Positions 18,001 through 21,000 of a stretch of DNA of 49,802 nucleotides are shown piece by piece (position 1 is the stretch's first letter; every line of letters starts with the position of its first letter). The DNA is taken from IMG/VR virus record IMGVR_UViG_2541047795_000003, positions 1 to 49,802 of that record; one strand, written 5' to 3'. This stretch comes from a virus. Lineage: Duplodnaviria; Heunggongvirae; Uroviricota; Caudoviricetes. The position numbers are program-made.

Positions 18001-21000
18001 GGTCTGGCAGACTATCAGTTCGGTTGTTACAGACGCCTTCCGCAGTGAAGGCTTTTTTATTTGTGGTAAATGGGCGGCTGGTGGGTGTTAGGGGCACCCA
18101 CCAGCCATCTGCTCATGCGTTGGGTTCACAAGCAAACCTCAGGCCCACTGCTTTGCGCAAAAGCAGAATGAGCCTATCAGAGACAGGCTTAATGATCCAT
18201 GCTTAATACTGTAAAAATATCCAGTTGTGAGTTAATCAACGCCGACTGCCTGGAATTTATCCGGTCGTTACCCGAAAATTCTGTTGACCTGATAGTCACG
18301 GACCCGCCGTACTTTAAAGTGAAGCCTGAGGGCTGGGATAACCAGTGGAAGGGCGACGATGATTACCTGAAGTGGCTGGACCAGTGTCTGGCGCAGTTCT
18401 GGCGGGTGCTGAAACCTGTCGGAAGTCTTTACCTGTTCTGTGGTCATCGCCTGGCATCTGATATCGAAATCATGATGCGTGAACGCTTCTGTGTGCTGAA
18501 CCATATTATCTGGGCGAAGCCGTCCGGACGCTGGAACGGATGCAACAAGGAAAGCCTGCGGGCGTATTTCCCCGCCACAGAGCGCATTCTGTTCGCGGAA
18601 CATTATCAGGGGCCGTATCGTCCGAAAGATGCCGGGTATGCGGCGAAGGGCAGTGCACTGAAACAGCATGTGATGGCCCCGCTGATTTCTTACTTTCGTG
18701 ATGCGCGCGCGGCCCTGGGGATAACGGCAAAACAGATTGCAGATGCCACAGGAAAGAAAAACATGGTGTCGCACTGGTTCAGTGCCAGTCAGTGGCAGCT
18801 ACCGAACGAAAGCGATTATCTGAAATTACAGTCGCTGTTTGCCCGGGTGGCAGAAGAGAAACATCAGCGCGGTGAACTGGAAAAGCCCCACCACCAGCTG
18901 GTGGATACGTATACGTCACTGAACCGGCAGTATGTGGAGCTGCAGAGTGAATATAAGCATCTGCGGCGGTATTTTGGTGTGACGGCGCAGGTGCCGTACA
19001 CGGATGTGTGGACACATAAACCGGTGCAGTTCTATCCCGGGAAACATCCGTGCGAAAAACCGGCAGAAATGCTGCAGCAGATAATCAGCGCAAGCAGTCG
19101 TCCGGGTGACCTGGTTGCAGATTTTTTTATGGGCTCAGGTTCAACGGTAAAAGCTGCACTGGCGCTCGGGCGTCGTGCGATTGGCGTTGAACAGGAGACC
19201 GGACGTTTTGAGCAGACAGTCAGGGAAGTTCAGGATTTAATCGTTTGAAACGGATGAGATTGCAGAATTAATTACGCACCATTATTATTCTGCTTCCGGC
19301 CCTTTAGCTCAGTGGTGAGAGCGAGCGACTCATAATCGCCAGGTCGCTGGTTCAAATCCAGCAAGGGCCACCATCACATACCGCCATTAGCTCATCGGGA
19401 TAGAGCGCCAGCCTTCGAAGCTGGCTGCGCGGGGTTCAAGTCCCCGATGGCGGTCCATTATCTGCATCATGCGTTGTTAGCTCAGCCGGACAGAGCAATT
19501 GCCTTCTAAGCAGCTGTGGTTGCACTCCTGTTGTTTCTGGTGGTGATGGTGGACTTCAGCAGCCGGATAATGTCGGTGCTGTCTGATGGTGTTTTGGTGG
19601 CGGGTGTGTGGTTGTTGCTTTCCCGTTGCTGAAAAAGAAAGCATCAGGCGATTAGCAGGGTATCAGTTACCCGTTGAAATTTTTAAATACCTCACAATTC
19701 CACAGCTTGATGATTGTCTGGCTGCCGGAGAATTTGTTAAAAATTACATCGCATGGTGAATCCCCCTCAGCGGCGGGGCATCTGGCAAAGTGTATGATCC
19801 AGAGAACATGCAAATTCAGTAGACAGGCTGAATTTACCGGGAGGCCCCTGGCACCATGCGACAGACAGAAATTAGGCTATACTTCAGCCCCTCTCCGGAG
19901 GGGCTTTTCTGTGCAGGATGTGTCACAGTTTCCTGAATTCTGAGTACTGTCCTGTTACTCAGGGTGCTATATTTTCTGACGTGATGAAAGTCTGCCGGAA
20001 GGCGGAACGTATCGGAAATGACCCAGTAGAGAAAACGTTGACTCAGATACCGATGCTGAGTTACCGGGAAACCGGCATCACATGACCGCTATCCTTCCAG
20101 GCTCGCTCCGGCGGGCCTTTTTACTGCAGAAAACAGTTTTCCCGTAAAATGCCACGTTGCTCATAATTCAGGCTGGCGATTATTGTCTGGCCGGCGGGAA
20201 GTTTGTTAAAAAATTTCGCATGGTGAATCCCCCTGTGCGGAGGGGTAATCAGCGAGTAGGTATATGGGATAATCGCGGATTCAGGTGCTGGTACTGAATT
20301 CACCGGGAGGCACCCGGCACCATGCAATGGCACATAGCGCCACTCTCCAGCCCCTCTCCGGAGGGGCTGTTTATATTGATTTTGTCAGATGTGAGTAAAC
20401 TGCTTATGGACTTTGTTGTTTTAGCCCATAAGGACATATTTGCAGAGTGCAACGGTTATTAAAGCATTCATTCAATACGTTATCTGTATTTGTAGGGCAT
20501 TCCTGGCTGTTTTTGATTAAATTCCATAATGTTTTATTGAATGGTACTACGTTGTAAATGGTTACAGGTAGCACTTTGTTATTGAGCATGATGCCTGTGT
20601 GAGTCAGTGTAAATATACTTTCAGGAGGTAAGAAAGCATCCGATTGATACCAGATTATTAATTTTATTTTACTCCATATGACTGAAAAAGATATTCCGCA
20701 TGATGGCTGGATAACTGTATCAATCACAATCCACTTCATTTAGTTTCCTTGTTTATGCCTTGCTGGTGATGTTCTGAAAAGTATAAATGATATTTTTGAT
20801 TGTAAACCATAGAGCAGAATTATTTTTCTGATGTTGTTTATTGTTTATTTAAATGCAGGGTGGTTTATATCTCGTCTTGTAGTTTATCCATGCATATCTG
20901 CTTGATGATGAGGTTTTTATTTAAGGTATGGTTTTGTGTTTTTTCTGTATTACATGTCAGGTATTTTAAAGAATCATTTTTCAGATGGTGGAAAGAACCA

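Follow-up and report, generated by a model that had tools for sequence, protein, structure and literature searches.

Three tandem STnc100-family small RNA modules in the late region of a lambdoid prophage

The window analysed here is the whole 49,802-nt stretch of the IMG/VR virus record IMGVR_UViG_2541047795_000003 (Caudoviricetes, positions 1 to 49,802), and the element in question is a set of repeated, terminator-ended modules on its plus strand: module A (scaffold to terminator, 19751–19911), a diverged middle module (19979–20124) and module B (20218–20376). Modules A and B and the middle module are members or relatives of an already described prophage small RNA (sRNA) family, STnc100/EcOnc27/sRNA103, which is related to PasD. 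We regard the family membership and the non-coding nature of the modules as practically certain. Taken as a whole, the fuller reading, in which the locus is a head-to-tail array of three STnc100-family small regulatory RNA genes acting as Hfq-dependent carriers of seeds, appears likely. A first-pass annotation made from the sequence alone had reported two copies of a hairpin-rich module here. The observation is real and was correctly read as structured RNA, but the family has already been curated and studied experimentally. The present analysis adds a third copy, the recurrence of tandem arrays, a formal test of covariation and of non-coding nature, the anatomy of scaffold versus variable linker, and two competing models of the 5’ end.

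Positions 19300–20900 were read, and 19690–19930 was aligned with 20159–20395. The two segments are identical in 82% of columns, and the three common blocks that the first-pass annotation had listed are all present. The long-range complement it described is found as GCATGGTG/CACCATGC, pairing 19751–19758 with 19852–19859 in module A and 20218–20225 with 20318–20325 in module B. The local ATTCAG/CTGAAT hairpin is also present, with loops that differ between A and B, as is a CCGGG-AGGCA-CCCGG hairpin. Both modules end in the same terminator, AGCCCCTCTCCGGAGGGGCT (19886–19905 in A, 20348–20369 in B), and a third terminator, a stem-loop at 20099–20118 with a T-run reaching 20123, does lie between them. 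A simple scan of 17500–21100 found 13 terminator-like sites against 3.7 expected.

A search of the 49.8-kb window with Rfam 15, a check that had been suggested from the outset, identified the family. Module A matches RF02076 (STnc100, described in Rfam as a ‘Gammaproteobacterial sRNA’; gathering score 47 bits) with 138 bits and an E-value of 2e-30 at 19721–19914, and module B with 132.5 bits and an E-value of 5e-29 at 20190–20378, each over model positions 1–206. These E-values, which apply to the whole window, put the A/B repeat well outside anything expected by chance. The helices that had been described by eye are exactly those in the Rfam consensus structure.

Each module can be divided into scaffold, linker and terminator. 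In module A the scaffold (19751–19859) is delineated by RF02076, by our own covariance model R1 (see below) and by a minimum free energy fold, which reproduces its helices: H1 encloses H2, a variable H3 region, H4 (AAATTCAG/CTGAATTT) and H5 (CCGGG-AGGCC-CCTGG). The putative seed, linker GACAGACAGAAAUUAGGCUAUACUUC (19860–19885), has a high unpaired probability in the fold. The intrinsic terminator, supported by the terminator scan and by covariation of its helix, is a stem-loop (19886–19905) followed by UUUUCU and ends at 19911. R1 scores 124.9 bits over 19751–19911. Module B has the same plan according to RF02076, R1 (161.6 bits) and the fold, with a scaffold (20218–20325) in which H1 encloses H2, H3, H4 and H5, a linker and putative seed AAUGGCACAUAGCGCCACUCUC (20326–20347), and a terminator found by the scan (stem-loop 20348–20369) with an interrupted U-tract, UUUAUAU, ending at 20376.

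The count of two modules had to be revised, since 19979–20124 is a diverged third copy. This middle module reaches 30 bits (E 5e-5) against RF02076 over the full model at a permissive threshold, which is under the gathering score, and 71.5 bits against R1, the copy itself being in the training set of that model. It has a closing helix GUGAUG/CAUCAC, an H4 ACUCAG/CUGAGU and an H5 CCGG-GAAA-CCGG, followed by linker GACCGCUAUCCUUCC (20084–20098) and terminator GGCUCGCUCCGGCGGGCC (20099–20118, T-run to 20123). In a three-way alignment every helix is kept through compensatory substitutions relative to A and B. A 55-aa open reading frame (ORF) that overlaps the middle module (19918–20085) has no family match in Pfam or NCBIfam.

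Homologues were used to assess whether the paired segments are conserved. An exact-word scan of IMG/VR gave 120 loci and 96 unique 245-nt instances, of which 87 are family members. Forty-three full-length homologues were aligned with MAFFT, and a five-helix architecture (H1, H2, H4, H5 and the terminator) was examined. In this alignment 94.9% of the cells are paired, as compared to 39–53% with slid partners, and 14 pairs change on both sides, as compared to 4.5 in shuffles; none of 500 shuffles reached the observed value. R1, the covariance model built from these 43 sequences, recovers 119 copies in 100 loci, including diverged copies beyond the reach of the word search. Among 72 distinct homologues aligned to R1, the paired share of the cells is 96.6%, double-sided changes are seen in 24 of 34 pairs and compensatory changes occur in all five helices; this alignment is fitted to R1, so that its pair counts are biased towards the tested structure, yet it agrees with the MAFFT result. 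Slid-partner controls across the two alignments gave 32–54% paired cells. Since covariation is seen in both the MAFFT and the model-fitted alignment, the conserved unit is an RNA fold. RNAalifold run on the MAFFT alignment picked an alternative pairing of the 5’ arm, GGUG with CACC of H5; the Rfam-type architecture was better supported in the explicit test. A scan of genome contigs with the 15-base word GCATGGTGAATCCNCC gave only chance matches in unrelated phyla, and these loci (L006–L125) were left out.

The same result bears on the idea that the modules are degraded fragments of a protein gene, or antisense ‘hypothetical protein’ ORFs of the kind called by annotation pipelines. There is some precedent for such calls: PGAP places a partial pseudogene on the minus strand over module B, and at PasD loci the annotation contains antisense ‘hypothetical proteins’ of full length, namely ECs_0817 in Sakai and E2348C_RS28255 in E2348/69. 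However, the 70-aa antisense ORF and ECs_0817 have no Pfam or NCBIfam family above threshold, one sub-threshold match being due to chance. The substitutions are compensatory for RNA helices, which is unexpected in coding sequence, and a curated covariance model is matched over its full length. No protein family matches any ORF on either strand. We therefore give a protein origin very little weight, and the proposal that the conserved unit is RNA rather than protein is well founded.

The modules had also been likened to type I toxin mRNAs. Under that explanation the ATG in H1 would start a micro-ORF, and translation of a toxin-like or otherwise small protein would be gated by the structure that hides GGGAGG and the ATG. 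GGGAGG does lie 11 nt before the ATG, which is conserved in most copies; some STnc100 copies of EDL933 carry appreciable ribosome footprints, with a ribosome coverage value (RCV) of up to 3.2 (PMC5331693); and a real sok/hok-type element exists elsewhere in the window (14598–14769). The ORFs that begin at this ATG (19856–19936 in A, 20322–20462 in B) were confirmed to differ except across the terminator, and the two peptides share only the terminator-encoded SPSPEGL. Reading of the homologues in frame does not, however, yield a gene. In 26 of 30 distinct linker/terminator combinations the in-frame stop codon lies past the U-tract of the terminator, so that the terminated RNA would lack a stop codon. 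Frames 0, 1 and 2 run through the terminator in 17, 7 and 6 combinations, respectively. One homologue has no ATG, one ORF is just 2 codons long, and a frameshift separates PasD1 from PasD2 (14 aa versus more than 35 aa). The micro-ORF peptides have no Pfam or NCBIfam match, other EDL933 copies have RCVs of 0.04–0.6, typical of non-coding RNA (PMC5331693), and Rfam finds no known antisense antitoxin RNA family within 19250–21000 at E-values up to 5. The micro-ORFs are thus not genes, and the type I toxin explanation, which we consider highly improbable, is rejected. The modules resemble hok/sok-type toxin mRNAs in having a long-range 5’–3’ helix that buries a Shine-Dalgarno-like sequence and an ATG, in being present in multiple copies and in residing in a prophage. 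Unlike those mRNAs, they have no conserved peptide, usually no stop codon ahead of the terminator and no match to a toxin family, and the local Rfam search brought up no antisense partner of a known family, although an undescribed antisense RNA may exist. The proposed sequestration of a ribosome binding site is likewise not supported, GGGAGG and the ATG being parts of H5 and H1 of the family scaffold.

When the 87 unique family members were each divided into scaffold, linker and terminator, the most variable segment proved to be the single-stranded linker directly 5’ of the terminator. About 12 unrelated linker alleles of 18–60 nt were distinguished, while H1, H2 and H5 are nearly invariant. 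Across the family the scaffold is combined with several types of terminator and with two types of promoter; the STnc100 family is a mosaic. The allele of module B, AAUGGCACAUAGCGCCACUCUC(C), is the commonest (47 of about 125 IMG/VR instances) and is also carried by the copy downstream of stx2 in the Stx2a-converting phage Stx2_EC3283 (L002). The allele of module A is rare, with 4 instances, and is related to the Sakai and Salmonella allele. The middle module has a third allele. When folded from the closing helix onward, the linkers of all three modules are largely unpaired.

Evidence that this linker is the pairing surface comes from relatives. The PasD linker holds UGUGAG, which is complementary to CUCACA, the target motif found by sequencing of ligated, interacting RNAs (RIL-seq). 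In the case of the PasD-type EcOnc13, the Hfq peak from crosslinking and analysis of cDNA (CRAC), at 901332–901382, maps onto the homologous linker. Because the PasD seed and the EcOnc13 Hfq-CRAC peak both sit in the homologous linker, the linkers of A, the middle module and B are by analogy probably seeds, each module having a different one, which would give three specificities per array. The C/U-rich 3’ ends of two linkers, CUCUCC in B and CCUUCC in the middle module, would suit pairing with Shine-Dalgarno sequences, which is speculation from sequence. For the mechanism as such, a trans-acting, Hfq-dependent RNA with the linker as its seed, we hold a slight preference.

Expression is documented for several homologues. 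STnc100, EcOnc27 and sRNA103 are equated in PMC12711010 and PMC7873438; the name EcOnc27 was given in O157 Sakai (Tree et al. 2014) and sRNA103 in EDL933 (Gruber & Sperandio 2015). The identity is borne out at the sequence level. The family copy of Sakai Sp5 scores 138.6 bits with R1, the Hfq-CRAC interval of EcOnc27 (Tree et al.) falls on this family member, and the Northern probe that Tree et al. used for EcOnc27 is reverse-complementary to an STnc100 linker allele. EcOnc27 is Hfq-bound, with Northern bands of about 235 and 247 nt in Sakai, and the 247-nt form is destabilised without hfq (Tree et al. 2014, PMC4104026). In EDL933, uninduced cultures contain abundant transcripts of 11 STnc100 copies, one of them confirmed by Northern blot (PMC5331693). 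The stability of PasD depends on Hfq (PMC8550237), and PasD is abundant and engages many mRNAs in RIL-seq. By analogy with EcOnc27, the EDL933 copies and PasD, the modules are most likely expressed as discrete Hfq-associated sRNAs. The suggestion in the first-pass annotation that they are prophage sRNAs expressed in lysogens thus agrees with what the homologue literature reports for the STnc100 family. In that literature we found no usable published transcription start site data or functional work for EcOnc27. The HnrS paper, also considered, concerns an unrelated 66-nt sRNA and not this family.

The proposed model is as follows. Each module would possess a sigma-70-type promoter and an intrinsic terminator of its own, together with a conserved scaffold of several helices, closed by the pairing of GCAUGGUG with CACCAUGC, and a short single-stranded linker. 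The linker differs completely among the three modules, so that three different seeds would be presented on one scaffold. In the lysogen each module is most likely transcribed alone and ended at its own hairpin, giving an RNA of about 160–220 nt. This RNA would use its 5’ A/U-rich block, together with the U-rich linker and tail of the terminator, to bind Hfq, and would pair with trans-encoded mRNAs through the variable linker. During lytic growth, RNA polymerase modified by the antiterminator Q is expected to pass all three terminators and to continue into the esterase and lysis genes. We infer the read-through, the 5’ ends, the identity of the targets and the use of the three linkers as seeds.

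Several observations weigh against this model or temper it. The expression, Hfq binding and targets are known from homologues, that is, from other alleles and loci. What STnc100-type RNAs do is itself ill defined; fimZ and espA transcripts increase when sRNA103 is overexpressed, by a mechanism that is unclear (PMC12711010, PMC7873438). The U-tracts are short or interrupted (UUUUCU in A, UGUUUAUAU in B), which is atypical for strong binders of the proximal face of Hfq. Part of the near-invariance of the scaffold sequence could stem from recombination between prophages and not from selection. RefSeq annotates no non-coding RNA at the array in the identical NCTC86 locus. Finally, the evidence on the 5’ end conflicts: PasD starts at the G of GCAUGGUG, whereas EcOnc27 measures about 235/247 nt and its Hfq-CRAC reads cover block 1, which suggests a start about 57 nt further upstream.

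Block 1, the sequence that precedes the scaffold and had been noted as conserved, is indeed conserved, and it has the geometry of a promoter. In module A (19714–19750) it comprises TTGTCT (19714–19719), which resembles a -35 element, an 18-nt spacer, TG (19735–19736) and TAAAAA (19738–19743), and in module B (20183–20217) TTGTCT (20183–20188), an 18-nt spacer and TGtTAAAAA (20204–20212). The middle module has an extended -10-like TGcTATATT (19965–19973) that appears to stand in the same register to the closing helix. With the G of GCAUGGUG, the mapped 5’ end of PasD, taken as +1, the TG of block 1 falls at -15/-14 and TAAAAA at about -12 to -7. The TG motif (or one base off) together with TAAAAA/G occurs in this register in 28 of 32 STnc100-type variants; PasD-type variants have no TG but do have a TTGACT or TTGATT -35 element. 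That block 1 is only a promoter, as the PasD 5’ end would have it, was qualified because the EcOnc27 Hfq-CRAC site and the bands of about 235/247 nt put block 1 inside the RNA. Block 1 may therefore act as a proximal promoter, as an A/U-rich leader or Hfq site at the 5’ end, or in both ways.

A second, distal start is suggested by motifs further upstream. In module A, TTAAAT (19683–19688) and CACAATTCC (19693–19701), within 19683–19701, are a candidate distal -10 element and 5’ end; in module B, TAAAAT (20145–20150) and CATAATTCA (20162–20170), within 20145–20170, are a candidate distal promoter and 5’ end. A CACAATTCA-like motif lies 56–58 nt before GCATGG in 46 of 50 unique STnc100-type upstream segments, whatever lies further upstream, and TTAAAT usually stands 3–4 nt upstream of it. 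An RNA begun at the distal site would measure about 230 nt in Sp5, near the 235/247 nt of EcOnc27, and about 215 nt in modules A and B. The proximal and the distal promoter may both be active. On the minus strand, block 1 also contains a promoter-like TTAACA-N16-GACAAT (9/12) at 19713–19740 and 20182–20209. Transcription from such a site would run antisense to the leader upstream and to the DUF3927 gene; the site may also be a mere by-product of the conserved A/T-rich block.

PasD1 and PasD2 of enteropathogenic Escherichia coli E2348/69 are the closest characterised comparison. They share with the modules the synteny of DUF3927 gene, sRNA and esterase or holin, the 5’ arm GCAUGGUGAAUCC, an H4-type hairpin, the GGGAGGC motif and the plan of scaffold, single-stranded linker and terminator. 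They differ from A and B in a shortened H5 and closing helix, in a U-rich linker of 46–47 nt whose seed is UGUGAG, in the terminator, and in a promoter that has a canonical TTGACT -35 element but no TG motif. Neither sequence-level identity with PasD nor the UGUGAG seed linker or the GGCUGCGCA-type terminator is found in A, the middle module or B, which carry other alleles. Zhu, Shabalina and Storz (2026 preprint) state that PasD1/2 and STnc100 share an ancestor; the relationship is confirmed by sub-threshold RF02076 matches of PasD1 and PasD2 (38 and 41 bits) and by the same synteny. PasD1 and PasD2 were called homologues of Sakai EcOnc13 by Pearl Mizrahi et al. The EcOnc13 probe of Tree et al. 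2014 (reverse complement GTTGTTGCCGGTCTGATAATAGATGTGTTAGAAAA) corresponds to a variant of block 1 from an STnc100-type copy such as that of locus L236, and does not match the PasD-type Sp3 locus (L246, Sakai Sp3) whose coordinates are listed for EcOnc13. Because of this mismatch, the EcOnc13 band of about 187 nt may come from another copy.

The window is the late region of a lambdoid prophage, and the array occupies the cargo or ‘moron’ site of the Q-dependent late operon, where Stx phages carry stx. From the RefSeq annotation of the identical NCTC86 locus and Pfam, the gene order is RusA, Q (16803–17624, plus strand; PF03589, E 8e-51), a small ORF, a DNA methyltransferase, tRNA-Met/Ile(CAT) and tRNA-Arg(TCG) (19298–19457, plus), a truncated third tRNA, DUF3927 (19516–19632, plus; PF13064, E 6e-11), which is immediately upstream of the array, then the array itself, an IraM-like gene on the opposite strand, a SASA/NanS-p-type sialate O-acetylesterase (20985–22856, plus; PF03629, PF08410, PF20350; RefSeq), and next to it the holin and lysis genes. 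The tRNAs, located by ARAGORN, Rfam and comparison with Sakai Sp5, correspond to ileZ and argN, which stand as a pair ahead of stx in Stx phages. Of the usual ileZ-argN-argO trio, the third tRNA (anticodon TCT; 19471–19523, plus) is truncated just past the anticodon arm; it is identical to Sakai argO2 up to the break and unrelated after it, and the DUF3927 ORF begins at the break.

In Sakai Sp5 a family member lies just downstream of stx2B, and the site in the window matches the moron site at which Tree et al. 2014 described Hfq-bound sRNAs as convergent pairs in lambdoid prophages. The partners there are the AgvB/AsxR anti-sRNAs (RF02702/RF02703), which resemble the modules in their position 3’ of PR’, their multiple copies, Hfq binding and a design of conserved body plus short variable pairing region. 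They are unlike the modules in their length of 51–60 nt, in having the variable part at the 5’ end and the conserved body on the 3’ side, and in lying on the opposite strand, convergent with STnc100-type genes. Many STnc100-type copies in IMG/VR have such a partner. RF02702 and RF02703 gave no match in the window at gathering thresholds, nor within 19250–21000 at E-values up to 5. The IraM-like anti-adaptor gene (20404–20739, minus strand; named by RefSeq, no Pfam match), which converges on the module B terminator, sits where many other prophages carry the convergent AsxR/AgvB-type sRNA. Compared with known STnc100 copies, modules A and B share the full-length model match, the scaffold helices, a terminator sequence common to most copies and the same prophage late-region site, and the B linker is identical to that of the stx2-downstream copy in the Stx2a phage. 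They differ in the module A linker, an allele related to yet distinct from the Sakai/Salmonella allele, and in forming a three-gene tandem array in a prophage without stx and without the convergent AsxR/AgvB-type partner common elsewhere.

This position raises the question of whether the modules act mainly in cis, with three serial terminators and their stabilising structures insulating the esterase/lysis cassette in the lysogen from transcription that runs on from tRNA and cargo promoters, Q-modified polymerase alone passing, and the RNAs being by-products like lambda 6S. Three strong serial terminators do lie between Q and the tRNAs on one side and the lysis genes on the other, lambdoid phages share this placement in the Q-dependent late operon, and StxS shows that terminated late-region transcripts exist. 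However, a terminator needs no 110-nt covarying four-helix scaffold, the homologues are stable, Hfq-bound RNAs that engage many mRNAs in RIL-seq, and the discrete alleles of the hypervariable linker point to diversifying selection acting on a surface used for pairing. In addition, some members, including one in the window at 5277–5424, keep the scaffold without a terminator. A mainly cis-acting role is thus unlikely, and insulation in cis and an sRNA role are not mutually exclusive.

The late promoter itself offers another possible source of short RNAs, of which the modules would be the PR’-tR’ transcripts, analogous to lambda 6S RNA or StxS. These RNAs are likewise terminator-ended, about 200 nt long and derived from the late region downstream of Q in lysogens, and in phage PhiR5_2 the array starts about 0.5 kb past the last annotated upstream ORF. 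In the window, however, the array lies about 2 kb past Q, beyond the small ORF, the DNA methyltransferase, two tRNAs and DUF3927. A separate candidate tR’ stands directly after Q at 17707–17722, and the Sakai family member is downstream of stx2B, whereas StxS is upstream of stx. The modules also have promoter motifs of their own and are unrelated to lambda 6S and StxS in sequence and structure. The position of the array refutes this explanation, to which we attach next to no probability. The candidate tR’ (plus strand) is a strong terminator-like hairpin, CCCGCCGCCTGGCGGG followed by TTTTTT, about 85 nt past the Q stop codon, and is a possible site of a StxS/6S-type short transcript.

The locus, read as an array of sRNA genes, recurs widely. 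Many E. coli chromosomes, NCTC86 and PCN033 among them, match the 901-nt stretch 19600–20500 with 100% identity; of 5,426 complete E. coli genomes, 424 contain 80% or more of the stretch and 2,862 contain parts of it. At least 9 IMG/VR loci and phage PhiR5_2 carry three-module arrays, and one locus (L130) has four copies. The same array with the same alleles is found in L143, L202, L213 and PhiR5_2, and the order copy, diverged middle, copy recurs with other alleles in L133, L142, L152, L165, L199 and L210. Middle-type copies are at the same position in all nine of these IMG/VR loci and in L003. One locus (L215, 4126–4282 and upstream) has a single module that combines the upstream region of A (CTTGATGATTGTCTGGCTGCCGGAGAATTTGTTAAAAATTACATC) with the body of B, which looks like the collapse of an array by recombination between modules.

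The immunity region of the window (5008–5487, minus strand) contains C4 antisense RNA (81.9 bits), its a1/b1 target below threshold, isrK (67.7 bits) and DicF (71.5 bits). Between DicF (5436–5487) and isrK/C4 (5008–5196) lies a scaffold-only STnc100-like element (5277–5424, minus strand). It reaches a sub-threshold 35.6 bits with RF02076, over model positions 22–154 only, and 34.3 bits with R1 (E 7e-8 on 801 nt). Its H1 (AUGCGGUG/CACCGCAU) and H5 (CCUGG/CCAGG) carry compensatory changes relative to A and B. As it lacks both a linker and a terminator, it would form a domain inside the immunity-region transcript. Elsewhere in the prophage, a sok antitoxin RNA match (14598–14769, plus strand; RF01794, 106.7 bits) marks a genuine hok/sok-type locus.

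The STnc100 scaffold might be an autonomous functional RNA domain, for example one for protein binding or for processing or stability, with the arrays serving as seed cassettes shuffled by recombination. Three findings hint at this: the scaffold is nearly invariant across unrelated linker alleles, the diverged middle copies keep every helix by compensation, and the scaffold-only relative at 5277–5424 lies inside the DicF-isrK-C4 immunity transcript. We offer the idea tentatively and think it rather doubtful.

Prophage-encoded, Hfq-dependent sRNAs rewire host regulation in both pathogenic and commensal E. coli, and one member of this family adjoins stx2; a recent study singled out single-nucleotide polymorphisms in the stx2-adjacent copy as predictors of haemolytic uraemic syndrome (PMC12711010). 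The same arrays are also common among stx-free strains, the commensal NCTC86 being one, and the known picture of the family is unchanged. The modest addition made here is organisational: arrays of two to four genes share one scaffold and carry unrelated linkers, and because of these linkers one prophage may deliver several regulatory specificities at once.

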